Positions 3,546 through 32,976 of a DNA stretch of 64,000 nt are shown here, piece by piece. Position numbers and translations under genes: made by a program. The DNA is from Halobacteriovorax sp. JY17 (GTDB lineage Bacteria > Bdellovibrionota > Bacteriovoracia > Bacteriovoracales > Bacteriovoracaceae), in assembly GCF_002753895.1 (NCBI RefSeq), contig NZ_NJER01000001.1, forward strand, positions 1,114,910-1,178,909. Reading direction: 5' to 3'. Every line of letters starts with the position of its first letter. The stretch's first letter is position 1. The notes beneath the pieces were generated by a model. It was not told the DNA's origin. It made no database searches and saw only the letters and a list, made by a program, of their open reading frames with translations.

Positions 3546-3554
3546 GAAGGTCTA

Positions 3555-7136: not shown

Positions 7137-7149
7137 TAGCTACTATCTT

Positions 7150-8589: not shown

Positions 8590-8598
8590 CACTATCCT

Positions 8599-9267
8599 CT
8601 ATATTATTTCTCTTTCAATTATTTCTAAACAATCAATTGGAGTCTTCGCCTTAAAACTTGGACCAACTTCATCCAAATACTCTTCATTCACATGAGTACA
8701 CCAAAGTGCTGCGATTGACTGACACCCAAAGGATTTCGCACCTTGGATATCAGTTATACTATCCCCAATCATAATGACTTTACTCTTATCTACATTCTCT
8801 AGCATTTCCTCTAGTCCTTTAGGATGAGGTTTAGGAATGGTGTCGTCTAGGCATCTAAATTCGTAAAAGAATTTAGCCACATCAAGAGATTTCAAGATGG
8901 CCATTGTACTCATTCTGTCACGGGCAGTCCAAACATAGAGCCTATAGCCTGACTCACCAAGCTTAATCAGAAGCTCTCTCATACTATCAAATAAGACATA
9001 TTTAAGCTGATCTTGATTTGAAATCTCAATCCATCTCTTAAATAAGGCATCTCTAATTGTTTCATCTGAGATATTTAGTCCAAAGCGTAGGGCCAAGTCA
9101 TACATATCAGCCGTATATTTTTCAACCACTTCAGATCTCGGCACTTCTCGCTTTAAAACTTCTGACATTAGCTGCTGAATGCCTTTGATTATCCCCTCTT
9201 GACTAGAAATAAGTGTGCCATCGCAGTCAAAAACTATATGACCCTTAAATTCCTCAATATTAGGCAT
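8599..9267 (-). CDS. HAD-superfamily hydrolase (phosphoglycolate phosphatase-like)
   Basis: FDCDGTL motif I, KPHP, MIGDSITDIQGA motif IV. Start taken at MPNIEE (9267). Confidence 0.9.
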   Translation of the reverse strand: MPNIEEFKGHIVFDCDGTLISSQEGIIKGIQQLMSEVLKREVPRSEVVEKYTADMYDLALRFGLNISDETIRDALFKRWIEISNQDQLKYVLFDSMRELLIKLGESGYRLYVWTARDRMSTMAILKSLDVAKFFYEFRCLDDTIPKPHPKGLEEMLENVDKSKVIMIGDSITDIQGAKSFGCQSIAALWCTHVNEEYLDEVGPSFKAKTPIDCLEIIEREII

Positions 9268-11722: not shown

Positions 11723-11749
11723 TAAAGTTTTTAAATTTAAAACCGATAA
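11723..11749 (+). promoter_or_regulatory. sigma28 (FliA)-type promoter
   Basis: TAAAGTTT-N11-ACCGATAA, one mismatch to TAAAGTTT-N11-GCCGATAA, 40 nt upstream of the 11790 start. Confidence 0.8.
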
Positions 11750-13946: not shown

Positions 13947-13962
13947 ACGGCCATAGACAAGT

Positions 13963-13990
13963 AAAATTGGCGACTATTATGGCCAATTTT
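13963..13990 (+). terminator. Possible intrinsic terminator
   Basis: Inverted repeat AAAATTGGC...GCCAATTTT just after the 13946 stop; the loop is long. Confidence 0.4.
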
Positions 13991-14153
13991 ATCTAGCAGA
14001 AACAATATCTCTTATTCACCCCATTTTAACCTTTAATTACAAAGAGTTAGATAGGTCATTTTCTTTCCTTCTTAATCTACCTTTTCACTCTGTTACTGTC
14101 GTAAAATAGAGAAAAGACTATTTTTCCTAGCCCTAAGAAATTAAGTCTTTTTT

Positions 14154-14180
14154 TAAACAAAGCTCATAAATACCCGAATA
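14154..14180 (+). promoter_or_regulatory. sigma28-type promoter
   Basis: TAAA-N15-CCCGAATA; same CCGAATA -10 variant as upstream of the flagellin gene. Confidence 0.65.
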
Positions 14181-14204
14181 GATACTGAGGAGTAGAGCTT
14201 CAAT

Positions 14205-17200
14205 ATGAACTTTAAAAGAATTTTCAACATTCTCATTTTACTATTCGCCTTCACACTTGTGTCTTGTGTTGATGCGGGAAGTGGTGGAAAGAGAAAGACT
14301 GCGACAGCAAATCAAGGGGCAACCACTGATGACGTTGATGATTCTAATAGTGGTGAAACATTAAATGCTTATTGGTTCTTCAATGGTCAAAAAATTGAAG
14401 GAACAATTACCGTTAATCAAAATGTTCAAACAGTCGCCTACCTACGCGGTAAAACTATTCATAATTTTTTAAATACAGAGAGCAATGCTGCGAAGAAATA
14501 TTGTCTAGTAGGAAGTTACCAAGATAATACTGTGACTAAGAATACACTCAACGTAAGAGCGGTTCCTATCGTCATTACAAACTTTACGACTAAGAGTATT
14601 GAAAGACTTCTTAGAATAGACTTGATTGACGAGTCAGTTAACTCCACTCAATGTGCAGGCCCTGTTAGTGTATTAGATGTAAACGGAGAAGTTGACATCA
14701 CGAGAGCACCAAACCCAGGTTTTTCGCCCACAACGATTTGTCCAAATTGTACGAGTGCATTCACCACAAGTAATATTAGTTTATATGAATACTCTTCTCT
14801 TTCAATTAATGATGGAACAAAAGTAGATCCTTCTCTAACAGGACTTGCTACAACTAATCTTAGAATTAATCCTACTAATACGGCAACAGATCCTGTGAGT
14901 AGTTGTAGCAATAGCGAATGTATTGCCAAAGGGTTTAACTGTTGCCTAGAAGGACAATGTGTTAATGATGCTTCTGTGAAGCCAAATGTAGATCCTTTAA
15001 GTACAGAGTTTCTTCAGGCAAAAGCTGAAGTTGAAACTGATCCTCTGAATTTTTTAAAGTGGCCAAATGTTTACTTTATTTGTCCAAATATAGTTAGACC
15101 TGAGCCACAAGATCCAGTAATCACCGATCCAAATCCAGGAGCAGATGAAAGATTCCAGGCCCTCCTTAAGCAATATAATTGCCTTACGGGTGCAGAAAAT
15201 ACGGAAGGAGCGGACTACTCTGCCTGCGAACCTACATTTGATGATGCCGCTTATGACACAATAAAGAATGATGTTTGGGATCAGTGTGGTTGTGAAGCTG
15301 TTGGTGCAGAAAGAGAAGTGAAATGTCCGGACTTTGGTTTAAAGCCTGTTTTAAATACAAACGATGAAATTGTAGAAATTATTTGTAAAATTCCACCTCC
15401 GCCAAGTGACCCTACTCCAGTTCAATACACTAATGAGCCCGTTCCTGTAAGAAGTGTTCCTCATAGATTCTTTGATACAACAGGAAAACTTTGGGATGAC
15501 TTAACTAAAATTGACAGTGCTTCTATAGTTCAAGAAGGACAAAGTTTTTCCTACACTGATACGTCAGGAAAAACCGATCCTACACCGACTCAATTTAGTA
15601 TGAACGCAATTCTAGGGCCAATGAATGTTCAATTAACAGGAGCAGTACCTGCCAAGAAATTAGATATTGAATTTGATCAAGTCTATGTCATTTCAGTAAA
15701 TAGTGGTTACTACACTCCTTGTCCGCAATGTGCTGACGATGCGTGGTTCTCAACTTTTAAATCACGTCCGCCTTCATATAATGGAACAGGACTCCAGGCC
15801 GTAGGACACTCTACTTCAAGAGATGCTTACGACAATAATACGAATGCAGGAAACTATGAAGATACGATCTTTGGTAGAGCGTGCTGGCTTCCTCCAACAA
15901 TGATTCCATTCTCTCATAATCCAAATAATAATTTAAAGACTCAGAGAATGAATAGGCTTATCACTCAATCAGCTCTCTACGTTAACGGATACCAAAGAGA
16001 TTGGTATGGTTTTAACCAAGGTGCACTCATTGGTTCTTTCAATGGAGTCAATTGGTTTGCCATTGGAAAAGGAAGAAGAGTCACTTCTACTTCTAATAAA
16101 CTCTATCTTGCTATTAATGGAGCCTACGCAGATCTTGCAGATAAAACTGATCTTCTTGTGAATGTTGTAACAGATCAAGGTGGCGGAACGGCTGCGGATT
16201 ACGATTACGACCCTAACCTAGAATTAAATGATTCAAGACAAAACCAAGGTGCCTCTTGCCAAGAGGCCCACCAATGCCAAGTTGATAGTGACTGCGTCAC
16301 CAAATTAGGTTGGGAATATGTTTGTGCGGATGTAAATCAGCATAAATCAAAGTGGCCAAAATTTAACTTAAATGCTGACGAACAAGCGGGACAAGAAAAC
16401 GAATCCCTCTCTTTTAATCAAATTATTTTTGGTGTTCAAGCCGCTTCGGCATCTTCAAAGCGATGTGTTTACAGAGGTTCAGGTTCTGTGTGCTCAAGCT
16501 CTAGAACAGATCTGGGAGCTGCTTCAAAATTATTTCAATGTGCTCCTAACTTCTACTGTGCCAAAATGGATGAATCTGAATTTAATTCAGAAGTAGTTAG
16601 AACTCCTAACCTCATTTCAAATATCCTCTTTGGACAAGAAGCCGATGTCCTAGGTAGACCGATGTATTACTTAGGTGGCAATGGAACTCAGTCGCTTGAG
16701 TCTAACCTCTCTGTAAACCCTGATGGAACATTAAAGTTTAATATTAGCACTCCACCAGAGAGTATTGTTTTAAATCAAATAAAGCATAATATGGCAGCCT
16801 ATTTTTCTAACAATGAAGCCGATGTTCGTCTAAATGATATTGGCGTTTGTAGACCTGGAAAAGATATTACACAGGCAACACAAGAACAGATGCAACAAAG
16901 TAAAGATAGCCTAGGAAGAACTGACTATATTAGCCAGATATCTTCTTGTGATTCTACCGCAACGAATGGAACTCTAAGAGCTAGGGCATGTCCAGTATTT
17001 GATACTGATGGAGATTATGTAAACTCTCCACAAATAGAAGATGTGAATGAGCAAAATATGTGTGGTGGTGAGTCTGTCTCAACAATCAACGGGACACCTC
17101 AATCTGTCTTCTTTGAAATTGAAGCACTAGATCTGGGAGCTCTTCCTTCTTTAGTAGATCCAAGAGTTGTGCAAAATGCTTGTCTAAGAAAAGCAGGCGC

Positions 17201-19353: not shown

Positions 19354-20073
19354 ATGCTCAAGCTTTTAACTCTTATCATATTAAGTACCTACGCCACAGA
19401 GGTTAAGTTCCTTCCCTATATGGCGGAACATGAGAACTTAGGCTGTCCGTCGAACTCTCAGTGTTCAAAGAAAATTGGAATTATAAGACATCAGCTACTG
19501 GGAATTGCCAAGTCAGCTGATAAGAATAAGATCAGCAAAATGCGCTCCTTTACGGCCTCATACGGGGCACTTCTTCCCGTTTGGGGACGCCAGATTGCAG
19601 AAAAGAATCAAGACCTCATTCTCTGGGACTCATCCTGTAAAGCTCATAATAAAGAGAAGATTGAATCGATGAAGTTGATTGAAGTTTTCTCTAAAAATTT
19701 AAATACTCTGAAAAAAGAAAAAGATCTCTTTGTTCCAAACGCTCTTATGATAGATAGAAAATCAAAGAGAGTGAGAAGCGTGATCAGAGGGGATGCTCCT
19801 ATTCTCATCGATGGTGATGATCTCATTTATATACGAGAGAATGAAGGCTTTTACTACGGTCTCAGAATTCTCGCCAGTGGTGAAATTCGCATTGAAGACA
19901 CTCCTAAAGTTCAAAACTACCCAAGTGAAATTGGCTGCTCAGAAGAAGTGACAAGAGAGCTTCTCGCCCTCTCACCAGTAAAACACTTATACCAAGGAAG
20001 TTACTGTAAAATTATTTGGAATAAGAAATCTAGAAAGTATGAAACTCTAGCGTTTGGTTGGAGCTGCGATTGA
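19354..20073 (+). CDS. Exported hypothetical protein with Cys pairs
   Basis: 239-aa ORF, hydrophobic N-terminus; stop overlaps the next start. Confidence 0.65.
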   Translation: MLKLLTLIILSTYATEVKFLPYMAEHENLGCPSNSQCSKKIGIIRHQLLGIAKSADKNKISKMRSFTASYGALLPVWGRQIAEKNQDLILWDSSCKAHNKEKIESMKLIEVFSKNLNTLKKEKDLFVPNALMIDRKSKRVRSVIRGDAPILIDGDDLIYIRENEGFYYGLRILASGEIRIEDTPKVQNYPSEIGCSEEVTRELLALSPVKHLYQGSYCKIIWNKKSRKYETLAFGWSCD

Positions 20074-21113: not shown

Positions 21114-22478
21114 ATGAAAATTTTACTGCTAATACCTCTCTATTTATTCTCAATGAATTCGTACAGCGCAACTGCCGCAATTTTAGACAACGGAGTTGAT
21201 CACACTCATAGTGAGCTTGAGGAAAATATCTATAGAAATTTAGATGAGAGACTTAACGGTTACGACGACGATCAAAATGGCTACATAGACGATATTCTAG
21301 GTTGGAACTTTGTCACTATGACAAATTCTACTTTTGATTTCTCTAGAGAGATCTACTTAACAACTGATATCGAAAGATACTATCACCTAAGAGCGAAGAA
21401 CTCCCTTGGAACAATTACAGAAGAAGAAACAAGAGAATATAATAAATTAAAGAAAGACTCTGATCTCTCGGATAGAAGAAAGGATTTTGTTTCTTGGATG
21501 CACGGAACCCATGTGGCAGGAATAGCCGCCAATAGCGAAGATCTTCCACAGGAAATTAACTCTAGTGATATAAAAATCTTCTCTGTCACCTATCTAGGTG
21601 ACGCGAAGTCTGGTCCAGCGAAAGCTCCAGAGTTTGAGGCCTTAAATACTAATAGTACATTTGCTGGGCAAAGACATCTTGAAAATTATTGGAAGAGTTT
21701 TCTTAAGTGGCAACTTAATAAATTTCAGCTTGGAGTAGATTACGCAGCATCAAAGGCCTCTGTCGTAAATGGATCATTTGGTCAAAGCTTTGAAGGTATT
21801 CAAGAGCGTATGGAAAATTATTATAAAGATCAATTTGGAAAAGAGATGAACTCTAAGGAGTCATTTGCAAGAACCACTACCTTTATGAAAGAGCTCATAG
21901 AGAAGTCTACACGAATTTTAAGTAAGCACCCTAATACACTCTTCGTTTTCTCCGCCGGCAATAAGAAGAATAACTCCGATGAGTATATTCACTTTCCAAG
22001 CGCTATTAGACTAGAGAACTCACTCTCAATTGGAGCCTCATTTGATTTTAAAGAAATGGCCTATTTTTCAAACTTTGGAAAGAAGACTGTAGACCTCTTC
22101 GCCCCAGGAATGGCCATTAGAAGCACTATTCCAAGACAAGGATACCTTGCAACAAATGGAACCAGTCAGGCTTCGCCATATGTTGTAAATATTGCGATCA
22201 AAGCACTAGCTCAAGCAGAGAGACTTGGTATTAAATTAAAAATTTATCAATTAAAAAATATTCTTCTTCAAACAGTCATAAAAAAGAGTGAACTTACTGA
22301 CCTATCAGTTTCAGGTGGAATTATTTTTCCAGAGAGAGTTTATCAGACAGTAAGAAACCTCAGACGATTTAACCTGACCAATTCCATCCAGTACGCAATC
22401 AGAAAGTATCCGACAAAATCAGTAACAGTAGAAAAACTCAATGACAATGGGCTATTTCTAGAGCTTCCTGAAAATTAA
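21114..22478 (+). CDS. Secreted S8 (subtilisin-like) serine protease
   Basis: Catalytic triad motifs AILDNGVD, HGTHVAGI and NGTSQASP; FSAGN oxyanion; DDDQNGYIDD insertion; signal peptide. Confidence 0.92.
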   Translation: MKILLLIPLYLFSMNSYSATAAILDNGVDHTHSELEENIYRNLDERLNGYDDDQNGYIDDILGWNFVTMTNSTFDFSREIYLTTDIERYYHLRAKNSLGTITEEETREYNKLKKDSDLSDRRKDFVSWMHGTHVAGIAANSEDLPQEINSSDIKIFSVTYLGDAKSGPAKAPEFEALNTNSTFAGQRHLENYWKSFLKWQLNKFQLGVDYAASKASVVNGSFGQSFEGIQERMENYYKDQFGKEMNSKESFARTTTFMKELIEKSTRILSKHPNTLFVFSAGNKKNNSDEYIHFPSAIRLENSLSIGASFDFKEMAYFSNFGKKTVDLFAPGMAIRSTIPRQGYLATNGTSQASPYVVNIAIKALAQAERLGIKLKIYQLKNILLQTVIKKSELTDLSVSGGIIFPERVYQTVRNLRRFNLTNSIQYAIRKYPTKSVTVEKLNDNGLFLELPEN

Positions 22479-22531
22479 TTCGGAAATTTATTCGCTTATT
22501 TTTGTGGATATAATTTAGATCTCTAAATTAT

Positions 22532-22558
22532 TCAAATTCCCTGAAAAACTCCCGATAA
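22532..22558 (+). promoter_or_regulatory. sigma28-type promoter
   Basis: TCAA-N15-CCCGATAA, 37 nt upstream of the 22596 start. Confidence 0.6.
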
Positions 22559-22595
22559 GTGGTATAGGAATATCTTGATTAAGGAGTGATCTTCC

Positions 22596-23510
22596 ATGTT
22601 TAGTAAAACAAATTTAACTACTGCACTTACACTTGGCTCTCTCTCACTATTTTTAGCCTCATGTTCATCAGGCTATTCATATAAGAAGCCAGAGTCTTTT
22701 GATGAAAAGATTAGTCGCTACCAGTCTCGTAGCATGAATACAAATCTTGTTCCAGAAGTCCAAGTAAATGAGAAATTCTCTTATAAATCTAAGCGAAGCA
22801 GAGGTCCAGCTTCTGTTCAAACTGAACAAGAAAGAGATGATGGTCTAAATCAATATAACAATAAGAGATTATACTTTCTTACTCTCTACTCTCAATATCA
22901 ATCTCTAAGACCTTTTGCTTCTAATGAAACAGTGGGACTAGAGATTAATCACTGTCCTAGTTTTCATTCAAGCTATCTAACCTACAATGAGAATTCATCT
23001 ACTCCTTCAAGTAAGAGAGAATATAAGCTCCCTTTTACGGATATGGCGATGATGGAAAATACAAGTTTCATGGCAAGTTATCCAGAGTTCTACCTACCTG
23101 TCTCTAAAAGTAGTGTTAGACCACGAGTTATTGATGTGGCAATTAAAGAAAAACTTAGTGCAACAGAGACGAGAAAATCAATTTCAAATGCTATTAATAT
23201 TCACCTAGCAAAGACCTATAGTGAACTAAGTGAATTATGTGAAACTGGTTCAAGTTCAAACTACTATGTTTATGAGAACTTAATGACTCACATTAAAACT
23301 AGGGATAAGATTTCAGCTAATGGTACTGGACTAAAGACTCTATTTAAGACAACACTATTCTCTAATATGGCACTAACAAGCTCGATCAAAAAGAATCAAA
23401 GAGTTAAGTCTAGAGGAATCGCTTCCTACGCTCAAAAGCAAAGCTTTGATAAGGAAGTAATCAAAAGACTTGAAGTTCCTTGGGTCGAGAGCTACTTACA
23501 AAGTAAATAA
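22596..23510 (+). CDS. Hypothetical lipoprotein
   Basis: Lipobox FLAS-C, AAGGAG RBS; contains RGPAS and RGIAS motifs. Confidence 0.75.
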   Translation: MFSKTNLTTALTLGSLSLFLASCSSGYSYKKPESFDEKISRYQSRSMNTNLVPEVQVNEKFSYKSKRSRGPASVQTEQERDDGLNQYNNKRLYFLTLYSQYQSLRPFASNETVGLEINHCPSFHSSYLTYNENSSTPSSKREYKLPFTDMAMMENTSFMASYPEFYLPVSKSSVRPRVIDVAIKEKLSATETRKSISNAINIHLAKTYSELSELCETGSSSNYYVYENLMTHIKTRDKISANGTGLKTLFKTTLFSNMALTSSIKKNQRVKSRGIASYAQKQSFDKEVIKRLEVPWVESYLQSK

Positions 23511-23564: not shown

Positions 23565-23981
23565 ATGACTAAAAAAGTAATCGTAAGCGCCTGTCTCGCC
23601 GGACTAAATTGTAGATACGACGGAGATAATAAGAGGCGTGAAGACATTGTTGAAATGGTTAAACGCGGAGAAGCTATCCCTGTGTGCCCTGAGCAACTTG
23701 GAGGCCTTAGTACCCCCAGAGAGCCTGCTGAAGCTGTAGAAGAGAAGGTACTCACAATCAATGGTAGAGATGTCACTTTTGAGTATAGTAGAGGTGCAGA
23801 TGAGGCCTTTCTAATTACACAAATGTCAGGAGCAACTGAAGCCCTATTAAAGAGCAAGTCTCCCATGTGTGGTGTGGGCTCCGTCTATGATGGGAGTTTC
23901 ACAGGTACTATGAAGAATGATGATGGTATTTTTACCAAACTCTTAAAAAAGGCCGGTATAAAAGTCACTCCAGTAGACTAG
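23565..23981 (+). CDS. DUF523 family protein (2-thiouracil desulfidase TudS-like)
   Basis: VSACL.G..CRYDG, PVCPEQLGGL.TPR and LKSKSP.CG motifs. Confidence 0.88.
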   Translation: MTKKVIVSACLAGLNCRYDGDNKRREDIVEMVKRGEAIPVCPEQLGGLSTPREPAEAVEEKVLTINGRDVTFEYSRGADEAFLITQMSGATEALLKSKSPMCGVGSVYDGSFTGTMKNDDGIFTKLLKKAGIKVTPVD

Positions 23982-25438
23982 AGATTTGTTGGAAACTCAA
24001 GAGTGATTGTTGTATTTTCTTTTGAGTTATCTATAAAAAGTCTTCCATTATGTTCTTTAGCTGTTGAAGAAGAAATACTTAATCCAAGTCCTGTTCCCTC
24101 ACCAATATCCTTCGTCGTAAAAAAAGGTTCGAACATTTTCTCTTGAATTTCTCCAGGAATCCCTCCCCCACAGTCTACGACAGAAAAGCTTATTAAATCA
24201 TCACCTTTCACTACAATTAACTTAATCCAAGGCTTGTCCATTCCCTTTATTTCGTCGCGAGCATTATTTAAAAGATTTATTATAACCTGAGTGATCTTAA
24301 CTTCCTGACATTGAATCTCAGTCGAAAAATCAAAACCTATAAACTCTGTAGTAATATCTATTCCCTTTTCATTGAGAGACATTTGACAAAGATCAAGTAG
24401 TCTTTCAATTAAATCATAAATTACAACAGTCTCAAACTTCTCTCCAGCAGTATCTCTTGATAACCTCTTCAAAGAAGTAATCGTCTTAGTCATTCTCTCA
24501 ACAGTCCTATTTATCATACTCCCAAAGTGCTTCAATCGATCTCGGTCTAATTCATCATCACGTAAGAGGTGAAGGATTTTCTTTCCACTAAATGATAGAA
24601 CTGTAAGTGGATTATTAATTTCATGAGCAATATTTGCGGCCATCTCCCCTAGACTGGCAAGTCTAGCAGAATTTATTGAAGCGGATTTTTGAAGCTGAAT
24701 CTCACGTTCTTGTCTTTGAATTTTCTCATTTGTTTCAAAGTTTGCTCTCTCAACTCTCTCTAACATATTATTAATTGAGTCTTTCACATAATCTAATTCA
24801 TCAATATCTGGACTTCCCTTCTTTAAGGAAAGCCTCTCAATATTTAGTGAGTTAAGATCTGCCTTCTTTAAGAAATTAACAATATAATCGAGATGCTTTG
24901 TCACCAAAATTCTAAAGAGATAGAGCATCGCTAAAATCACCATTAGAGTCTTAACAAATTGGGCCAGAAAGAAGTTAATTAGCTTCGAGATTAAATTTTC
25001 ATTAATATGAGCTTTTGTCGCCCAAATAACAAGCTCTCCAAGTTGATGAGAATATTTATTCTCTTTTAAAAAGAGAGGGAACTTTGCAGAGAATTTATCA
25101 AGCATTTTATATTCTGCTTCAGTATTTTGATAATAGATCTGTCCATCTTCATCATAAATAGCAACTCCTACAATATCTCGAAGTTTTAAAATGGAGTCCA
25201 GCTGTACTTGAATCTGTAAATCATCTAAGTTCCATAAAGATCTCGACAAGGACGTAGAATTTGAACCTCCAATATGAGTCAAGGTTTGATTCAAGTAAGC
25301 TAAATCTCTCTTATATTCAATGTAATACTGAAGTGCTGTTGTAAATAACGTAATGACAGAAGAAGCAAGTAGAATGGCAACCATAAGCTTTCGCCTAAGA
25401 GAGATAAATTTTTTAAATTTTAGATTATCTACTGCCAT
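23978..25438 (-). CDS. Membrane-bound sensor histidine kinase (orphan in this window)
   Basis: Two TM segments around a periplasmic domain, H-box AHEINNPL, N-box NLLNNA, D/F/G boxes DCGGGI, FEPFFTTK and GTGLGL. Confidence 0.93.
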   Translation of the reverse strand: MAVDNLKFKKFISLRRKLMVAILLASSVITLFTTALQYYIEYKRDLAYLNQTLTHIGGSNSTSLSRSLWNLDDLQIQVQLDSILKLRDIVGVAIYDEDGQIYYQNTEAEYKMLDKFSAKFPLFLKENKYSHQLGELVIWATKAHINENLISKLINFFLAQFVKTLMVILAMLYLFRILVTKHLDYIVNFLKKADLNSLNIERLSLKKGSPDIDELDYVKDSINNMLERVERANFETNEKIQRQEREIQLQKSASINSARLASLGEMAANIAHEINNPLTVLSFSGKKILHLLRDDELDRDRLKHFGSMINRTVERMTKTITSLKRLSRDTAGEKFETVVIYDLIERLLDLCQMSLNEKGIDITTEFIGFDFSTEIQCQEVKITQVIINLLNNARDEIKGMDKPWIKLIVVKGDDLISFSVVDCGGGIPGEIQEKMFEPFFTTKDIGEGTGLGLSISSSTAKEHNGRLFIDNSKENTTITLEFPTNL

Positions 25439-25558: not shown

Positions 25559-26392
25559 TTAACCGATAAGCTTAAGAGCTGCTTGTCCTTGAGAGTTAGA
25601 CTGTGCAAGAACCGAAGTACCAGCATTTGTAAGAATATTAAGTTTAGTATTCTTAGCAGTCTCTGCAGCAAAGTCAGTGTCTCTAATTCGAGAGTTTGCA
25701 GCATTTAAGTTCTCAGAACTAATTTGTAGGTTATTGATAGTAGAACTTAGTCTGTTCTGCTTCGCACCTAGCTCCGCTCTTTGTCCAGAAACCATTTGAA
25801 TCGCTGTATCTAATGACTCAAGCCCTGTCTGAGCATCATCTTTAGAAGATACTGATAACCCGTCTACTCCCATATTTGAGATTGAAGAGTTCAGTACTTG
25901 TGTATCAAATGAAATTCTATCCTGGAATTCATCGTTGTTAATACCGATTTGGAAGTCATACTTATCTCCAGCACCATTTAATAGCTTCTTACCGTTAAAT
26001 TCAGTTACTTGAGAAATACGTTCCATTTCTTGCTTTAAATTTTGATATTCTAAATCAGTAAACTTTCTCTCCGCATCACCAACTGTGTCCGATGCTGATT
26101 GAACTGAAAGTTCTCTCATTCTTACTAGGATGTTACCAATCTCTGATAAACCGCCTTCTGCAGTTTGGATCATTGAGATACCATCGTTAGCGTTTCTTTC
26201 TGCTTGATTTGTAGACTTGATTTGAGCTTTCATCTTTTCAGAGATCGCTAAACCTGCAGCATCATCAGCTGATCTTACAATTCTTGTTCCAGAAGATAAT
26301 TTGTTTAAAGTCTTGGCCTGTTCACCATTGTTAACACCCAAAGTTCTTTGAGCTGATAGTGAAGTTGTGTTAGTTGCAATACGCAAACCCAT
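25559..26392 (-). CDS. fliC: Flagellin (short, 277 aa)
   Basis: [50 protein letters not shown] end. Confidence 0.97.
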
Positions 26393-26514
26393 ATGATTCC
26401 TCCTTGTTAGTCCGTCCTTTCTAAGACTTGATCACCGTACCGTGAGGATCAATAAGCATACTGCTATAGATGAATTTTAATGAAACAGTCGTTGTGACCT
26501 TTGTTTCATAAAAC

Positions 26515-26541
26515 TATTCGGAGACGATCAGATATACTTAA
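26515..26541 (-). promoter_or_regulatory. sigma28-type promoter of fliC
   Basis: TTAAGTAT-N11-TCCGAATA on the minus strand, about 120 nt upstream of the flagellin ATG. Confidence 0.65.
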
Positions 26542-26628: not shown

Positions 26629-26655
26629 TAAACTTTGAGCTTAAAATGACGATAA
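26629..26655 (+). promoter_or_regulatory. sigma28-type promoter of the CheY/CheX operon (possibly leaderless)
   Basis: TAAA-N15-GACGATAA ending 6 nt before the ATG at 26662; no RBS in between. Confidence 0.6.
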
Positions 26656-26661
26656 AATAGC

Positions 26662-29361
26662 ATGAGTACAAAGCCACTTATATTTATATATCCCCTTTCA
26701 GAAACAATGAAGAAACTCAAAGAAGCAATTGAGGAAATTTCAGAATCTGAAGGTGTTGAGATCTATGAAGTCGATGACTTAACGGAAGTGGCCCAGCTTG
26801 TTCCTACAATTGGACAGTCTCTATCTATCTACGGCGCCCCTAAGAAATGTGCCATGGCCCTAAAGCAATTAAAGAAAATTAATTCCAAACTTAACTCAAA
26901 AGTTCTTCTCTTAAATGAAAAATCTATTCCAAGAAAGACGTTAGATAAGTTTTCTAAAATAGGTCTTACTGAATTTATTCAAGAACCTGTTCCAGCGAAA
27001 ACACTACTCTATAAAGTAAAGCTCCAGCTAAAATCGATAGTGAATGACGAATTTGACGAAGAAGAGGAAGAAGTTGGAGTTAAATCTTCTAATGAGTCTA
27101 CTGAAGAAGCTGATGAATCTGTCTACAAATCTTCGAAGAACAATAATCAAGGCGATGAAGAAGATGACGGTCTTGATTATTTAACAAAGAAGAAGAAAAA
27201 GGCAGCTTTTGAAATAGAACAAGCGGAAAAAAAGAAAAAGAAAAGTAATTACCATGAAGAAGAAATAGATTCTCACTGGCAAGGGAAGTTAACAAAAGAA
27301 GAACTCTCTCTAGAAGACGTAGATCTCCCAGAAAAAGAAAAAGCTAACGAAAACCTCATTGATAATTATCTTAGAGGAAAACAAGATACTCACGAAAATA
27401 TTGGTGATGAAGAAGAGCAAAGAAGAAAGAATAACTATAGAGATGAGATATTAGACGAGAACTTAAGCTCTAATGCAAAGAGAGATAGTCTCGAGGCAGA
27501 CTACGCTACCCACAAGAACAAAGCTCATACAGAACTAGACCTTGATGACATAAAGAAAGATCTCCAAAGAGAGCTACAATCAGACCTCACCCACTACAAA
27601 GGCTCAGTTAGCACTCATGAAGAAGAGAGTGAAGACGAGGAAAAGAAAAAGAAGAAAGGATCAACTATTTTAAATGTTGAGCAAGAAAAAGACTTCACCG
27701 ACTATGATGAAGATGATGAGCACCTTTCCAAGAAAAAGAAAAAACCTCTCACTATTTTGAATATGGAAGAAAAGGAGCTCACACAAGAGCACTACGAAGA
27801 AGAAAGTGAAGAAAAGAAGAAAAAGAGTCATCAAGAGACTCTAGAGGTAGAAAAACCAGCTTCTGAAAGTCTAGTAGAGCATCTTAATAGTGAAGAAACT
27901 AGCGGAAAAGGATCCACAGATAAACTCGACAAGTACCTTAGAGGTGGTTCGGCCAAGAAAGGTCAAGAGGAAGAAAATAAAGAAGATGAGAAAGACTTAA
28001 AAACGTCGGCAGAGATTAGCTTAGAAGAGAATGATTTAGACCTAGATGATCAAGAAGAGAATGAAGATAAGAACTCTAAAGACTATAATAAAGATGCGGA
28101 ACTTAAAATTGATCGAGCAAAGAAAGATTTAGAAAAAGAAGAACACTCTTATGAAGAAGAGAGTGAGGATTATCTGAAAAAGAAGAAAAGTGTCGATTTA
28201 CAATTTGATCCTTCTTCAAAAGAAAAGTCCGAATTAGAAGAGGAAGAAGAAAGAAACTATCAGCACAAAAAAGAAAAGTCCGCAGAGCTTGAAGAGAGAG
28301 AGAAGCAGGCTAGAACGAAGCAAGAGATAGAAGAAGAAAAGAAGAATAAAACTCATGAGTCTAAGACTGATAACTTGACCAAAGAGAAAATGAAATCCGA
28401 TAGTAAAGTTGACAAGATTCAGACTCATTATAGCAGTGAAGCAAGCGTTAGCCACGTAGACGATGATTGGAATTTTTCGAAATCTGAAAAGAAAGTCGAA
28501 AAAGAAGAGTCACTTAGAAAAGACCTTAGCGAAAGTATGAGCTATGGAGAAAAAGTGGATCTAGGTGAGCAAACTATTGATTATAGAAAACTAAAGGATG
28601 AGTTTGGCGGAATCACCATTGATAGATCAGGAAACTCTCTTAAGAAAACTGGTCCCAAATACTACGGCGGAGGTCCAGGTCGAAAAGCTAAAACACCAAG
28701 CTATTATAGAGATGATGAAGAACAAAGCGAAGAACTACTAAATGAAGAGAGTACTGAAGAGCAAATGACTTCTGAAGATCAAATATTTGAGCCTATCTCA
28801 AAGGGTCTAGAAAATATAATTAAGGTCTTAAATTTCTATAACCTTAACAAAGATGCTGATGAGCAGGCCTATAAGTATGTCTCTAAGATTATTCAAAGTA
28901 ACTTCAATGGTGAAATGGCCTTATTCTACTATGATGAAAAAAAATCTAGAGTTAATGAAGCTACTAACTCTCTAAACCTTTTAGGAGATATGGAACTCGA
29001 AGCCAAGAAACCTATATGGGATAAATTATTTTCAAGAAGCTATAGGTCATGGAAGGATATTAAACTTCCAACATGGAGTGATGAAACATTTCAAGATGAT
29101 AATATTCAATTTATCTACCCCTATTTTGAGGGAGCAAGCCTCATGGGATTTGCTGTGACATGGTTTACAAATAAGTTTGATGAAAAAAGATGTCGAGAAC
29201 TAGAGGTCACACTTGAAACTCTTAGAGGGTTTCTCATCGCAAATTTTAGGAAAGGAATGCACACTGGTGAATATAATGGGCAAGAGAAGAAAGAAGAGAA
29301 AGTAAAATCAAATCCTATAAAATCCTTATTTGGAAGTCTATTTAAAAGGAAGGCATCTTAA
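26662..29361 (+). CDS. Pseudo-receiver + about 580-aa charged low-complexity region + C-terminal GAF-like domain
   Basis: N-terminus ends GLTEFIQEPV..KTLLYKVK, like a receiver beta5-alpha5 without the conserved Lys. Residues about 127-705 are E/K/D/S-rich. C-terminal YPYFEGASLMGF...FDEKRCRELE resembles a GAF end. Confidence 0.6.
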   Translation: MSTKPLIFIYPLSETMKKLKEAIEEISESEGVEIYEVDDLTEVAQLVPTIGQSLSIYGAPKKCAMALKQLKKINSKLNSKVLLLNEKSIPRKTLDKFSKIGLTEFIQEPVPAKTLLYKVKLQLKSIVNDEFDEEEEEVGVKSSNESTEEADESVYKSSKNNNQGDEEDDGLDYLTKKKKKAAFEIEQAEKKKKKSNYHEEEIDSHWQGKLTKEELSLEDVDLPEKEKANENLIDNYLRGKQDTHENIGDEEEQRRKNNYRDEILDENLSSNAKRDSLEADYATHKNKAHTELDLDDIKKDLQRELQSDLTHYKGSVSTHEEESEDEEKKKKKGSTILNVEQEKDFTDYDEDDEHLSKKKKKPLTILNMEEKELTQEHYEEESEEKKKKSHQETLEVEKPASESLVEHLNSEETSGKGSTDKLDKYLRGGSAKKGQEEENKEDEKDLKTSAEISLEENDLDLDDQEENEDKNSKDYNKDAELKIDRAKKDLEKEEHSYEEESEDYLKKKKSVDLQFDPSSKEKSELEEEEERNYQHKKEKSAELEEREKQARTKQEIEEEKKNKTHESKTDNLTKEKMKSDSKVDKIQTHYSSEASVSHVDDDWNFSKSEKKVEKEESLRKDLSESMSYGEKVDLGEQTIDYRKLKDEFGGITIDRSGNSLKKTGPKYYGGGPGRKAKTPSYYRDDEEQSEELLNEESTEEQMTSEDQIFEPISKGLENIIKVLNFYNLNKDADEQAYKYVSKIIQSNFNGEMALFYYDEKKSRVNEATNSLNLLGDMELEAKKPIWDKLFSRSYRSWKDIKLPTWSDETFQDDNIQFIYPYFEGASLMGFAVTWFTNKFDEKRCRELEVTLETLRGFLIANFRKGMHTGEYNGQEKKEEKVKSNPIKSLFGSLFKRKAS

Positions 29362-30392
29362 TGGCCATTACAGATAATTACTTCTTTATCGAATTAGAAG
29401 ATCTTTCTGAAAAGAAGATTTTTCCTTATCACCTCTTTGTCTTTAATCCTGCCAATGAATCTGTCAGTCCTTTCTTAAAAGCAAATTCTCCTCTCGTTGG
29501 TGATAAGCTTGATTTTCTTGAGTTTATATTAAGTAAAGGTGGTCGCTTAGCAGTCGATAGGAAGCAAAAGAAAACTTTTTTAAGTACTCATTCTTTAATT
29601 GAAGAAGAATTTAAGGGCCTTCAAGAAACTATTCATTACTTGGATGAAAAGAGGGCTGAAAAAATTCAAGAACTAGAGAAACAGACTAGTATTCTGGGAG
29701 AGATGAAGTTTAAAGAAGAGCTTCTAAGCTCAATCACTGATGATGACTATATGTCTATGATTGAAAGAGTAAGGCTAGAGACTGATACTTTTAGTGCACG
29801 AGTCTCCCACACAGTAAGCTTAGCCAGCTACTTATGTGAAAAACTCTTAGTTGAAGATAATTTTGTGAATAGAGTTGTTGCAGTCTCTTACTACTTAGCA
29901 AAGAACTGCGATATGAAAGACGAGCAGACGCTAGGAGATTTAATTTGTGCTGCATTCTTTAGTCATATTGGAATGACTCAACTAGATTATAACCTAGGTC
30001 ATAAAGCACATTTAGAATATAATAAGAGTGAGTTAAAAGAATATAAGAAACACCCTAATCTCTCTCACCACTTACTAAATAAGAGCGAAGTTGAGCTTAG
30101 TAATAGATGCATGAATATTATATTCCAGCATCATGAAAGAAATGATGGTTCTGGCTTTCCAATGTATAAGAAAGGGGAACATATTGATCAACTTTCATTA
30201 ATACTTGGTGCAGTATCTCATATATTTGAATACTCAGAAGGAAAAGTGACTGGAACAAAGACGAATATGACAACAGTTATAAGAAATTTAAAAAATAAAT
30301 CTTTCACTGCTGGACTAGAGTTCGAGTTTGGAGATAAAATATACGAAAGCTTAGTAAATATAATTAACACAGAGACAGAAGAAGCTGCTTAG
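29361..30392 (+). CDS. Degenerate HD-GYP-domain protein
   Basis: QHHERNDGSGFP...KGEHI and KKHP..S motifs are present. The HD dyad position reads AAFFSHIG and GYP reads GFP. Start overlaps the upstream stop. Confidence 0.8.
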   Translation: MAITDNYFFIELEDLSEKKIFPYHLFVFNPANESVSPFLKANSPLVGDKLDFLEFILSKGGRLAVDRKQKKTFLSTHSLIEEEFKGLQETIHYLDEKRAEKIQELEKQTSILGEMKFKEELLSSITDDDYMSMIERVRLETDTFSARVSHTVSLASYLCEKLLVEDNFVNRVVAVSYYLAKNCDMKDEQTLGDLICAAFFSHIGMTQLDYNLGHKAHLEYNKSELKEYKKHPNLSHHLLNKSEVELSNRCMNIIFQHHERNDGSGFPMYKKGEHIDQLSLILGAVSHIFEYSEGKVTGTKTNMTTVIRNLKNKSFTAGLEFEFGDKIYESLVNIINTETEEAA

Positions 30393-30400
30393 GAGAAAAG

Positions 30401-30793
30401 ATGGCCCTTAAAAGTGATATGAAAATTCTTGTCATTGACGACATGGCAACGATGAGAAAAATTATCAAGAACATGCTAAAACAAATTGGTTTTACCAATA
30501 TAACTGAAGCAGATGATGGTGCTACAGCATGGCCAATGATTCAAGAGGCGCTTAATAGTACTGCTCCTTATGAATTTATCGTCTCAGATTGGAATATGCC
30601 TCAAATGAGTGGTCTCGACCTTCTAAAGAAAGTAAGAGAAACAGAAGAGCTTAAGAAGCTACCATTTCTTATGATTACAGCAGAAGCTGAGCAAGGGAAT
30701 GTTGTTATCGCAGTAAAGGCCGGAGTTAGTAACTTCATTGTTAAGCCCTTCTCTGCTGCAGTCTTAAAAGAGAAAATAGAAAAGATTTTTTAA
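30401..30793 (+). CDS. cheY: Chemotaxis response regulator CheY
   Basis: ILVIDD..TMRKII, DWNMP.MSGLDLL, MITAE, KPF; single-domain enteric-like CheY. Confidence 0.9.
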   Translation: MALKSDMKILVIDDMATMRKIIKNMLKQIGFTNITEADDGATAWPMIQEALNSTAPYEFIVSDWNMPQMSGLDLLKKVRETEELKKLPFLMITAEAEQGNVVIAVKAGVSNFIVKPFSAAVLKEKIEKIF

Positions 30794-30805
30794 AAGGGCC
30801 TAAAA

Positions 30806-31309
30806 ATGAGCTTATTAAATGATCCATCAATGAAAGAAGTTGTAGATGAATTCTGTAATGAATCAATGGAACTCTTTAATGAATTAGAAGAAATTCTTGA
30901 AGAGTTTGAAGATGATCCTACACAGACAGATAAGCTTGAAAAGTTTGGACAAATAATTGATAGAGTCATGGGATCTGCTAAAACGATTGGAGCCGATGAA
31001 ATTGCGACTTTCTGCGAACTAGGAAAGGTCATTGGTTATAAATCAAGCCAAGTTAAGGATACTGCCCTACTTGAAGTTGTTTGCGCCATTATGTTTGACT
31101 CGTTAGAGCTTTTAAAGAAAATGATTAAACAAATTGAAGAAGGTAACTCTTCTTCTTTTGAACAAGTAAGTTCCGTCACATTTGTAACTAGACTAAAATG
31201 GCTTAAAGAAAAATTTAACGATATTGAACGTTCCTCTTGTGCTGCTGATCCAGAGGGCAATCTCACTCAGACATCTATTGATGATCTAATGAGTAGTCTC
31301 GGATTATAA
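30806..31309 (+). CDS. HPt/CheA-P1-like protein lacking the phospho-His, with CheZ-like C-terminal peptide
   Basis: EF.NES.EL..ELE..L.E.EDDP and IIDRVMGSAKTIG align with FRAAHTLKGSA. The protein has no His at all and ends QTSIDDLMSSLGL. Confidence 0.7.
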   Translation: MSLLNDPSMKEVVDEFCNESMELFNELEEILEEFEDDPTQTDKLEKFGQIIDRVMGSAKTIGADEIATFCELGKVIGYKSSQVKDTALLEVVCAIMFDSLELLKKMIKQIEEGNSSSFEQVSSVTFVTRLKWLKEKFNDIERSSCAADPEGNLTQTSIDDLMSSLGL

Positions 31310-31321
31310 TTTGGAGAAATA

Positions 31322-31831
31322 ATGACAAAGCAAAGTAATTTTTTAACATTCTCAAAACCTTTCATAGATGCTGCTAAGAATGTTTTTGAAACAATGGTTT
31401 TTACAAAATTAGATCCACAAAAGCCTACTATTAAGACAGACTCTCTTTCTAAAGGTGATATCTCTGCAGTACTAGGTCTAAATGGCGAAGTTGAAATAGA
31501 TGGCGAAACAAAGCCTTACCGAGCGATGTTAGTTATCTCATGGCCCTATGATACCTACTTCAAAGTAGCGAGTGCCATGCTTATGGATACTTTTATTGAA
31601 TATAATGATGAAATCGCTGATGTTGGTGGAGAAATCTGTAATATGATAATGGGAAATGCTAAGAGAGACTTAGCGACTCAAGGTTATACTTCTAATATGG
31701 CCATTCCTTCGATGATCGAAGGAGCAAACCATAAGATTAAGTATCCTGCAGGAACTACAGTTATACTCATTCCAATAAAATCAGCTCACGGCGATATGTT
31801 TATTGAGCTATGCTACTCTCAAGCGGATTAA
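31322..31831 (+). CDS. cheX: CheX-family CheY-P phosphatase
   Basis: PFI.A...VF.TM, DISAVLGL.G, catalytic GEICNMIMG (ExxN), P..I.G. Confidence 0.9.
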   Translation: MTKQSNFLTFSKPFIDAAKNVFETMVFTKLDPQKPTIKTDSLSKGDISAVLGLNGEVEIDGETKPYRAMLVISWPYDTYFKVASAMLMDTFIEYNDEIADVGGEICNMIMGNAKRDLATQGYTSNMAIPSMIEGANHKIKYPAGTTVILIPIKSAHGDMFIELCYSQAD

Positions 31832-32976
31832 GAGAATTCTTCAAAGGGGAGATTCGTTCTCCCCTTCCATATATTTAAATTTATTTCATACTCTTCTTTC
31901 TTAGCATCAAGAATGTCCACCTGAGCAAAAGACAATTGTTCACCAGAAGGATTTTTTCCAAAATCAAGATTATACATTCTTGTCCACGTACCTGTATTAA
32001 TGAATATTCCCCCATCAGAAAAAGATCTAAAACTAGGGTCATGAGTATGTCCTACAATTAGGCACTGAACTTCTGGTCTCTCTCTAAAGAAATCCATTGT
32101 CATTGTCTCGTAGTCTTTAAAGAGCTCTAGCTCGTTCATACAATGTTTGTACATCTTCTTTAAACTTCTCTCTTGCTTAAAGAGATAAATAGAGCGAACC
32201 ATTATAAAGTAGTAACTAGTTGCAAAGAGAAACCTTAGTGTGAAGAAAGTGTCATAAATAAGTCCGTTAATTATAAATTTCCTAATTGGACGAACGGCAT
32301 TAACATGATCTCTTTCCTCTTTAAACTTATTGATAACTCTTGTTACATAGTAAGATCCCCAAGGAGGAAGAAAATATTTCTCTCCGTCTTCAGACTCTAC
32401 AATAGACTTAACAGGGTGAAAGTGATGAGCGAGCTCATACTCGTGTCCATGCTTTAGAACAACACCAGGAGTTGGTATATATTCCCCATTATTATTAAGC
32501 TGAATATTCACACGTTCCCTATTCTTCTCTTCAAATAAGTCATAGAAGCGATCTCTTAAAGATTCAAAGACAAACTCAGCATCATGATTACCAATAATAT
32601 AAACTAGCTTTTTATTCTTATGTGAAACAAAGCGGTCAAGGGCCTCTAGAACTTCAGAGTGCGCCTTAATGATCATTTCGAGTTTACTTAGAGCTGCCTT
32701 CTCACTCCAGAACTCATCATCGAAGTAATTAACAAATGGCACAGCAAGAAGATCAAAGAGATCTCCATTAATAATTAACTCAACCTCCCTAGAAAGATAA
32801 TCATGTGAGGAATAGTAATCAAGAAAATCTACCAGCTCTTTATCAAAGTGAAAGTCTTCAAGATAATTTCTCTTTCCATTTACCATTACTCCTGCACCTA
32901 AGTGAATATCAGAAATAACGAGAATGCATTTATCAATTTTATTCTTTCGAAGGAATCTCATAGGCCTTTTTTCCAA
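31828..32976 (-). CDS. Calcineurin-like metallophosphoesterase
   Basis: SDIHLG, NGDLFD, GNHD, HGH and GHTH motifs. Confidence 0.9.
   Translation of the reverse strand: MEKRPMRFLRKNKIDKCILVISDIHLGAGVMVNGKRNYLEDFHFDKELVDFLDYYSSHDYLSREVELIINGDLFDLLAVPFVNYFDDEFWSEKAALSKLEMIIKAHSEVLEALDRFVSHKNKKLVYIIGNHDAEFVFESLRDRFYDLFEEKNRERVNIQLNNNGEYIPTPGVVLKHGHEYELAHHFHPVKSIVESEDGEKYFLPPWGSYYVTRVINKFKEERDHVNAVRPIRKFIINGLIYDTFFTLRFLFATSYYFIMVRSIYLFKQERSLKKMYKHCMNELELFKDYETMTMDFFRERPEVQCLIVGHTHDPSFRSFSDGGIFINTGTWTRMYNLDFGKNPSGEQLSFAQVDILDAKKEEYEINLNIWKGRTNLPFEEFS

Follow-up and report, generated by a model that had tools for sequence, protein, structure and literature searches.

We analyzed a 64,000-nucleotide stretch of the genome of Halobacteriovorax sp. 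JY17 (hereafter, the window) and, within it, a block of five plus-strand genes that lies back-to-back with the flagellin gene fliC. The genes encode, in order, an 899-residue protein (P899), a degenerate HD-GYP protein, a canonical CheY, an HPt-like protein (HPtL), and a CheX. We conclude, with moderate confidence in the scheme as a whole, that they form a single operon of the flagellar (sigma28-type) regulon and supply the response-regulator and signal-termination half of the only chemotaxis pathway in this genome. An original prediction, made from the letters of the window alone, had described the same operon as a dedicated motor-braking or signal-termination unit. We find the operon to be as it was described, and the idea of signal termination fits what its products look like. 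However, the idea of a separate, dedicated unit did not survive a look at the rest of the genome, in which the operon instead appears as the output half of ordinary chemotaxis.

The operon and its place in the genome

The five genes and the divergent flagellin gene are laid out as follows.

26662-29361, plus strand: P899 gene (899 residues; predicted pseudo-receiver, acidic region, GAF-like domain, basic tail)
29361-30392, plus strand: HD-GYP protein gene (343 residues; DUF3391-like N-terminal domain, helical linker, HD-GYP domain)
30401-30793, plus strand: cheY (130 residues; canonical, with D13, D14, D63 in DWNMP, T93, and K115)
30806-31309, plus strand: hptL (167 residues; CheA-P1/HPt-like helical bundle, linker, C-terminal docking-type tail)
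31322-31831, plus strand: cheX (169 residues; ExxN motif with E104 and N107, nucleotides 31631-31642)
25559-26392, minus strand: flagellin gene fliC (277 residues; Flagellin_N, 4e-38; Flagellin_C, 8.5e-23), divergent neighbor of the operon

Between 26662 and 31831, the open reading frames (ORFs) of 899, 343, 130, 167, and 169 residues are separated by -1, 8, 12, and 12 nt, and at the first junction, the P899 stop codon overlaps the HD-GYP start codon (TAATG). Genes 2-5 are each preceded by a Shine-Dalgarno sequence, which gene 1 lacks. Pfam and NCBIfam name four of the five products, P899 matching neither. These coordinates and domain matches agree with the gene content, spacing, and position beside fliC that had been predicted, and the predicted start of the module at 26629 is the first base of a promoter-like box described below.

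The arrangement is not peculiar to this species. In 14 genus/family loci, fliC is followed divergently by the genes for P899, HD-GYP protein, CheY, HPtL, and CheX and then by a convergent metallophosphoesterase gene, with protein identity down to ~35-45% at its lowest. Among 58 HPtL-encoding loci in species-representative genomes, nearly all from Bacteriovoracales or Bacteriovoracaceae, the full operon order is kept in ~38, the cheY-hptL pair is found in 49, and fliC adjoins the operon in most. The original prediction had staked itself on a conserved gene order, and these counts bear it out. Because the same arrangement recurs in dozens of species, we do not regard it as a product of chance. 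In the wider phylum Bdellovibrionota, 72 of 251 genomes encode a member of the HPtL family, including 29 of 50 in the window's own family (f1), 21 of 26 in f9, 7 of 22 in f14, and 6 of 20 in f4.

The genome that holds the window (3.47 Mb, 100% complete; genus Halobacteriovorax, family Bacteriovoracaceae) encodes one CheA, in a cluster of the order MCP...CheA-CheW-sCache-MCP-CheR/REC-CheB that lies 489 kb from the window (MCP, methyl-accepting chemotaxis protein; REC, receiver), and has nine matches to the MCP signaling domain. No cheY was found in this single cheA cluster. When the receivers of the genome were scored with a CheY model, the window's CheY reached 149.8 bits, compared to 90.5 for the next. 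The sole cheA cluster is thus without a cheY, and the only strong CheY is the one in our operon, which is why we read the operon as the output half of the ordinary pathway. The earlier description of a module “without CheA, CheW or receptors” is accordingly true of the operon itself but misleading for the genome, in which all of these are encoded in a cluster without a cheY.

CheY and CheX

Two of the five products look like ordinary chemotaxis proteins. CheY is a clear receiver (PF00072 Response_reg; 3.5e-25, 88.8 bits) whose closest matches are Vibrio cholerae CheY3 (1e-43) and Escherichia coli CheY (1e-37), with an identical DWNMP motif; against the enteric equivalog NF007901, it scores 148 bits, under the 189-bit cut-off. 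Judged by these similarities, it is of the CheZ-partnered type represented by E. coli CheY and Vibrio CheY3.

CheX is recognized by PF13690 (64.9 bits, cut-off 27; 7e-18) and matches CheX chains in the PDB down to 4e-27, 3H2D and 6VPW being the nearest solved ones. Its EICN (residues 104-107) corresponds to EITN in the CheX chains of known structure. The genome gave no other CheX hit and no CheZ or CheC above cut-off, and this CheX, with its motif intact, is the only CheY-P phosphatase recognizable there. In this respect it resembles the CheX that acts with CheY3 in Borrelia burgdorferi (3HZH) and the CheX of Thermotoga maritima (1XKO), as it has an intact ExxN, is encoded beside its CheY, and is the sole recognizable phosphatase of the CheC/CheX class. 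Unlike those proteins, it is accompanied by HPtL, a degenerate HD-GYP protein, and the giant P899, a putative scaffold.

An HPt-like protein with aspartate in place of histidine

HPtL scores just over the cut-off of the Hpt model (PF01627; 25.2 vs. 24.6 bits) and aligns with the P1 domain of T. maritima CheA (E 0.003) and, by hhalign, with the P1 domain of the genome's own CheA (E 5e-4). In both CheA alignments, Asp52 falls on the phospho-accepting histidine that HPt and CheA P1 domains carry. The segment around this site reads QIIDRVMGSAK (nucleotides 30950-30982), and there is no histidine anywhere in the protein. In a set of 141 representatives sharing no more than 50% identity with one another, Asp52 is kept in 137, Arg53 in 132, Met55 in 129, Gly56 in 131, Lys74 in 138, Asp98 in 132, and Arg129 in 140, with Gln49 present in 101. 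Residues this close to invariant suggest a surface with a function and not a mere spacer. The alignment of the HPtL bundle with CheA P1 and HPt domains (T. maritima CheA P1 structures, 2LD6 and 1TQG) stays in register for some 105-115 residues and takes in the G-x-A-x-x-x-G turn that follows the phospho-site. It differs from CheA P1 in having an invariant Asp for the histidine and Met for the Lys that follows it, in containing no histidine, in standing alone, and in bearing an added putative docking tail:

31265-31306, plus strand: HPtL C-terminal peptide TQTSIDDLMSSLGL, resembling CheZ 201-214 and the FliM N-terminus

This 14-residue tail aligns end-to-end with residues 201-214 of E. coli CheZ (SQDQVDDLLDSLGF) at 50% identity. 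The CheZ match ranks third among 177,635 PDB sequences, at E 0.62, and hhalign gives it a probability of 7%; it is statistically weak because the peptide is so short. The family consensus of the tail is sQdsIDdLLksLGL, and it also resembles the N-terminus of the genome's own FliM (LSQDEVDALL).

The position of the gene invites the same comparison, as hptL lies directly downstream of cheY, where cheZ lies in E. coli. Both organisms encode a helical protein directly after a DWNMP-type cheY (CheZ structure, 1KMI), and the one in the window ends in a candidate CheY-P docking peptide that resembles the end of CheZ. However, the body of HPtL is a CheA-P1/HPt-like bundle with Asp for His and has no match to PF04344, and the idea that HPtL is simply a divergent CheZ was rejected, given that only the last 14 residues align. 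The catalytic pair of CheZ, D143 and Q147, has at most a candidate counterpart in the Q49-x-x-D52 of HPtL. No CheZ over cut-off was found in the 251 genomes of the phylum. HPtL proteins presently go by the names “Hpt domain-containing protein,” “hypothetical protein,” or, through automatic annotation, “CheA.” In the literature searched, we found nothing directly relevant to a histidine-less HPt with a CheZ-type tail or to this gene combination. CheY and CheX are ordinary components, and it is their combination with HPtL, P899, and the HD-GYP protein that is undescribed in that literature.

The genome also encodes a second, shorter HPtL paralogue of 143 residues, with Asp-Arg at the phospho-His position (QMVDRIYGTA) and without the docking tail. 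Within 6 kb of it are genes for a second CheY-like receiver (135 residues) and a 370-residue FliG_C protein.

Genome contig 1296000-1308000, local 2749-3861, 5909-6340, and 8566-8973, minus strand: genes for the FliG_C protein, the paralogue, and the receiver

A degenerate HD-GYP protein and its counterparts in Bdellovibrio

The second gene product matches PF13487 (HD_5/HD-GYP) at 59.5 bits (cut-off 27.2; 4.5e-16) and aligns with the active enzyme PmGH (4MCW; 7e-6). The metal ligands of a catalytic domain of this kind (H...HD...H...HH...D) and its GYP are not intact, as HDIG is replaced by SHIG (SH at residues 201-202), the last Asp ligand by H287, and GYP by GFP. Because its metal ligands are altered, we rank it as a degenerate relative rather than an enzyme, and hydrolytic activity seems unlikely. 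Orthologues have SH, CH, AH, HH, or HE at the HD dyad and vary at the first His of the HD fold. The HHExxDGxGYP segment and a G-x-T-Q motif are conserved, and the Tyr-to-Phe change in GFP is peculiar to the window's species, with orthologues keeping GYP. Such strong conservation of a remodeled pocket suggests that binding of a ligand or partner has been retained.

The original prediction had likened this protein to Bd1817, an unconventional HD-GYP protein of Bdellovibrio bacteriovorus, and the analogy turned out to be closer than expected. In a B. bacteriovorus genome (a single contig of 3.73 Mb), one ORF matches Bd1817 (PDB 3TM8; E 2e-181). Its divergent neighbor encodes an HPtL orthologue of 172 residues, which contains VDRIMGGAK and ends in SEIDDLLKKLGL. 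An operon 4 kb from this pair encodes CheY, CheX, and a degenerate HD-GYP protein of 459 residues (LLHNIG, GTGFP).

B. bacteriovorus contig 1711000-1727000, local 7122-8598: Bd1817/HPtL gene pair
B. bacteriovorus contig 1711000-1727000, local 12171-14530: operon for CheY, CheX, and the 459-residue protein

By hhalign, the 459-residue protein matches the family of the window's HD-GYP protein with a probability of 95% over 254 columns, and the window's protein matches Bd1817 with a probability of 93%. A degenerate HD-GYP protein is therefore encoded with cheY and cheX in both Halobacteriovorax and Bdellovibrio. We rejected Bd1817 as the direct orthologue of the window's protein, as the 459-residue protein aligns better and phmmer missed Bd1817. 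We also considered whether the N-terminal domain of the 459-residue protein might be the pseudo-receiver of P899, but a Rosetta-stone test found no similarity.

Bd1817 nevertheless resembles the window's protein in its small N-terminal domain, helical linker, and unconventional HD-GYP domain, and a census of HD-GYP proteins places it in the DUF3391-HD-GYP family. It also keeps similar genomic company, with an HPtL orthologue back-to-back and a cheY-cheX-HD-GYP operon nearby. The two differ in what they have lost: Bd1817 keeps the HD dyad and lacks GYP, while the window's protein and the 459-residue protein have lost the Asp of HD and retain the GYP loop for the most part. Besides the family of Bdellovibrio, loci from four others have an HD-GYP gene directly beside hptL, usually in divergent orientation. 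Given these neighbors and the layout in Bdellovibrio, an association of CheY, CheX, and HPtL with an unconventional HD-GYP protein holds across the phylum.

The structure paper on Bd1817 reports late-stage expression and a deletion with no detected phenotype, does not mention chemotaxis, and contains no flagellum- or chemotaxis-related assay that we could find (PMC3188283). As the gene sits beside an HPtL orthologue and near cheY-cheX, switching frequency and CheY-P turnover would be the phenotypes of interest.

P899, a large acidic protein with a predicted pseudo-receiver

The first and largest product is divided as follows.

26662-27036, plus strand: predicted N-terminal pseudo-receiver, residues 1-125 (AlphaFold2 [AF2] and Foldseek)
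27037-28797, plus strand: central region of ~585 residues, charged and of low complexity (E 18%, D 10%, K 17%)
28798-29253, plus strand: GAF-like domain, residues ~713-864, with conserved LPxW..F...PY.(E/D)G..xG
29317-29358, plus strand: basic amphipathic tail IKSLFGSLFKRKAS, the last 14 residues; (K)SFFGxLFKKKA in orthologues

Sequence comparison gave little at the N-terminus: Pfam and NCBIfam return no receiver match, a hidden Markov model of the domain obtains only chance hits among PDB sequences, and an alignment with CheY reaches a probability of 24% (hhalign). The AF2 model, by contrast, is a (beta/alpha)5 fold with a pLDDT of 89.5, and nearly all of its top 50 Foldseek matches are receiver domains (two are flavodoxin-like), with E-values of 4e-5 to 4e-4 and TM scores of 0.5-0.7. 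The catalytic residues of receivers are missing, with YPLS for DD, IYG for the D57 region, and EP for KP (K109), and these substitutions are conserved among orthologues. The model thus points to a pseudo-receiver. With the HD-GYP protein and HPtL, this makes three of the five products in which catalytic residues are missing, the number originally predicted.

The whole protein has a net charge of -59. Across seven orthologues, the length and composition of the central region are kept and its sequence is not; the region is probably disordered. Between residues 176 and 511 (27187-28194) are five short motifs of the form KKKK-x(2-4)-hydrophobic-x-hydrophobic-E/D, and orthologues have up to seven copies at positions that do not align. 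We regard these as candidate short linear binding motifs. The C-terminal domain is modeled less confidently (pLDDT 69.7), and its best Foldseek matches are weak (E 0.01-0.1, TM 0.4-0.55) and comprise GAF, LuxR autoinducer-binding, and CodY GAF domains. It occurs only in the window's own family, in 29 of 50 genomes, and in 0 of 200 elsewhere in the phylum. In the tail, the hydrophobic positions are spaced i, i+3/4, i+7/8, in a part of the model where AF2 confidence is low, and it may act as a MinD-like membrane-targeting helix.

In architecture, P899 resembles ChePep of Helicobacter pylori, with a receiver-like N-terminus followed by a long, acidic, probably disordered region. In H. pylori, ChePep and CheZ(HP) form a chemotaxis-regulatory complex, and in both organisms, a large acidic receiver-like protein is found with a CheY-P termination partner, in our case a putative one, apart from the genes for CheA, CheW, and receptors. 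The comparison is one of architecture only and was made against the published description of ChePep, which gives it an N-terminal response-regulator motif, 77% disorder, ~30% D+E, and a polar location and reports it only from Epsilonproteobacteria (Howitt et al. 2011, PMC3143842). Lys makes up ~17% of P899, which also differs from ChePep in its amphipathic tail and its GAF-like domain. The partners would differ as well, those proposed for P899 being an HPt-derived protein and CheX and that of ChePep a CheZ homologue.

Promoters and transcription

Two boxes in the interval between fliC and the operon resemble sigma28 (FliA) promoters.

26629-26655, plus strand: sigma28-type promoter-like box TAAA-N15-GACGATAA, ending 6 nt before the P899 ATG
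26514-26541, minus strand: conserved sigma28-like box TTAAG-N14-CCGAATAG upstream of fliC, from an alignment of the intergenic region

The box before the operon matches the sigma28 consensus (TAAA-N15-GCCGATAA-like) at 11 of 12 positions, with one mismatch. Five orthologous loci share its -10 half, GACGATAA, letter for letter, and in most of 30 loci, a (G/C)xCGAwAA box stands 6-14 nt upstream of the P899 start codon. The genome encodes fliA (271.6 bits), and with the conserved -10 box, this agrees with the sigma28-type control that had been predicted. As the box ends 6 nt from the ATG and gene 1 has no Shine-Dalgarno sequence, the operon mRNA is likely leaderless or nearly so. The genome has five flagellin genes, and boxes similar to that of the window's fliC lie upstream of others among them.

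Two further boxes were noted. The same geometry, GACGATAA-6 nt-ATG, precedes a gene for a 600-residue PLD-like protein (genome contig 221424-221457, minus strand), and a sigma28-like box with one mismatch lies in the window at 11723-11749 (plus strand), 40 nt upstream of a 718-residue ORF at 11790 that has no Pfam match. An intrinsic terminator after cheX was considered and rejected, as the sole stem-loop there (31844-31866) has no T-tract and falls within the convergent gene.

How the parts may work together

From the domain identities, the degeneracy of three products, the genomic partition, and the conservation of the locus, we infer the following scheme of interactions, locations, and activities. 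CheA-P would phosphorylate the window's CheY, which would bind the FliM N-terminus (LSQDEVDALL) at the motor. HPtL would capture CheY-P with its CheZ/FliM-like C-terminal peptide, in competition with FliM, and its P1-like bundle would bind at the active site of CheY, Asp52 standing where CheA has its phospho-His. HPtL might then present CheY-P to CheX or directly speed hydrolysis; either way, the lifetime of CheY-P would be shortened. P899, with its ChePep-like architecture, would be a membrane-associated acidic scaffold that gathers the proteins of signal termination in one place, probably close to the flagellated pole. Finally, the HD-GYP protein may be a non-hydrolytic sensor or adaptor through which a nucleotide second messenger or a partner protein tunes CheY-P turnover. 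The intact CheX and the predicted CheY-P docking peptide on HPtL are what make signal termination, one half of the original prediction, the part that fits.

Several points weigh against this scheme. B. burgdorferi CheX is known to work unaided, and HPtL may therefore not be needed for dephosphorylation. The similarity of the HPtL tail to CheZ covers only 14 residues and is persuasive only through the position of the gene and the conservation of the peptide. In Bdellovibrio, HPtL adjoins Bd1817 and not cheY, an arrangement that a connection of HPtL with HD-GYP proteins would explain no less well. The GAF-like assignment in P899 is weak (E 0.01 or worse), and the polar or membrane location of this protein is purely our inference. 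Moreover, a strict genome-wide search with the sigma28 pattern gave 20 hits, among which the nameable downstream genes were not flagellar and there was no enrichment. Because this pattern failed to pick out flagellar genes, the assignment to the sigma28 class draws solely on the consensus match and conservation.

A bolder version of the scheme, joining all these parts, is one that we put forward tentatively and would not expect to hold in full. It takes HPtL to be a new class of CheY-P terminator that converged on CheZ from an HPt scaffold, with the invariant Asp, and a Gln one helical turn earlier, inserted into the CheY-P active site and the C-terminal peptide tethering the substrate. HPtL would then be the functional CheZ of Bdellovibrionota and, via Bd1817-type or degenerate HD-GYP proteins, a physical link between chemotaxis and cyclic-nucleotide signaling, and in P899 a ChePep-like scaffold would be known for the first time from outside Campylobacterota.

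The alternative that survives best, although we consider it unlikely, is that HPtL serves as an adaptor, conveying the state of CheY-P to HD-GYP proteins or vice versa, so that the operon couples chemotaxis output, and not mainly signal termination, to cyclic-nucleotide signaling. Binding of CheY-P to the HPtL tail would then change what Bd1817-type and degenerate HD-GYP proteins do or which partners they bind. The genes themselves lend this some appeal: hptL lies directly beside an HD-GYP gene in other families, that neighbor is Bd1817 itself in B. bacteriovorus, and a degenerate HD-GYP protein is encoded with cheY and cheX in both Halobacteriovorax and Bdellovibrio. The silence of the Bd1817 deletion is no obstacle, as motility switching apparently lay outside the assays of that paper (PMC3188283). 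However, the tightest pairing in Bacteriovoracales is that of cheY with hptL, often with no HD-GYP gene nearby. We also know of no contact between an HPt and an HD-GYP domain.

The dedicated unit of the original prediction, which would halt swimming on prey contact in response to cyclic di-GMP and independently of ordinary chemotaxis, now seems improbable. In its favor are the position of the operon beside flagellin, with which it is probably co-regulated, the degenerate HD-GYP protein, and the fact that these organisms are Bdellovibrionota predators. Yet with only one strong CheY in the genome and no cheY in its sole cheA cluster, this CheY must serve ordinary chemotaxis. Pfam and NCBIfam also reveal no brake of the PilZ/YcgR type among the operon products, and a CheX together with a putative CheY-P docking peptide suggests signal turnover and not a brake.

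We give equally little credence to HPtL as a competitive inhibitor, a histidine-less P1 mimic that would occupy CheY or the P4 domain of CheA and damp phosphotransfer, with no action on CheY-P. A P1-like body with an acidic side chain where the His would be and an invariant Met for the catalytic Lys51 equivalent would suit a mimic. However, the conserved tail resembles the CheZ C-terminal and FliM N-terminal peptides, both of which prefer phosphorylated CheY, and the cheZ-like position of the gene in a phylum where no CheZ was found fits a role after phosphorylation. Lastly, that the five genes are accidental neighbors and no functional unit is barely credible, given spacings of -1 to 12 nt that include a TAATG overlap and an order that persists in dozens of species even where protein identity has fallen to 33-45%.

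Under the favored reading, in which the operon terminates the output of the ordinary pathway, the locus unites a CheZ-type CheY, a CheX, a putative scaffold resembling ChePep, a degenerate HD-GYP protein, and, derived from an HPt domain, a protein whose tail is like that of CheZ. Where the enteric CheZ model does not apply, how CheY-P signals come to an end is understood only in part, and what inactive HD-GYP proteins do is an open question. The locus, conserved, compact, and accessible to genetics, is a case in which such matters can be studied. Its conserved layout gives testable roles to several uncharacterized proteins, and it provides a concrete chemotaxis hypothesis for Bd1817, which has a solved structure and a deletion without detected phenotype (PMC3188283). 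The control of runs, reversals, and stops also bears directly on how predatory bacteria find prey.

Neighboring genes and other observations

The gene that converges on the operon is conserved with it.

31828-32976, minus strand: calcineurin-like metallophosphoesterase (382 residues; PF00149, 1.4e-7), overlapping the 3' end of cheX by 4 nt

It has no NCBIfam match, and it adjoins cheX in convergent orientation in ~45 of the 58 species loci. It may have a functional tie to the operon, for example through nucleotide hydrolysis. On the other side, directly downstream of fliC, lies a gene for a CHASE5-HisKA-HATPase sensor kinase (23978-25438, minus strand), whose position is kept within the genus and which no cognate regulator adjoins.

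The cheA cluster (genome contig 1626000-1645000; local 13840-17114) has some features of its own. It encodes a CheR-receiver fusion of 620 residues, a CheB of 469 residues with an extra N-terminal extension of ~125 residues, and a CheA of 709 residues in which Pfam recognizes no P2 domain. Elsewhere (genome contig 21333-22751), a 509-residue open frame with three tandem CheW domains looks like an unusual triple-CheW coupling protein and lies near two MCP genes (19389-19850 and 29088-29684).

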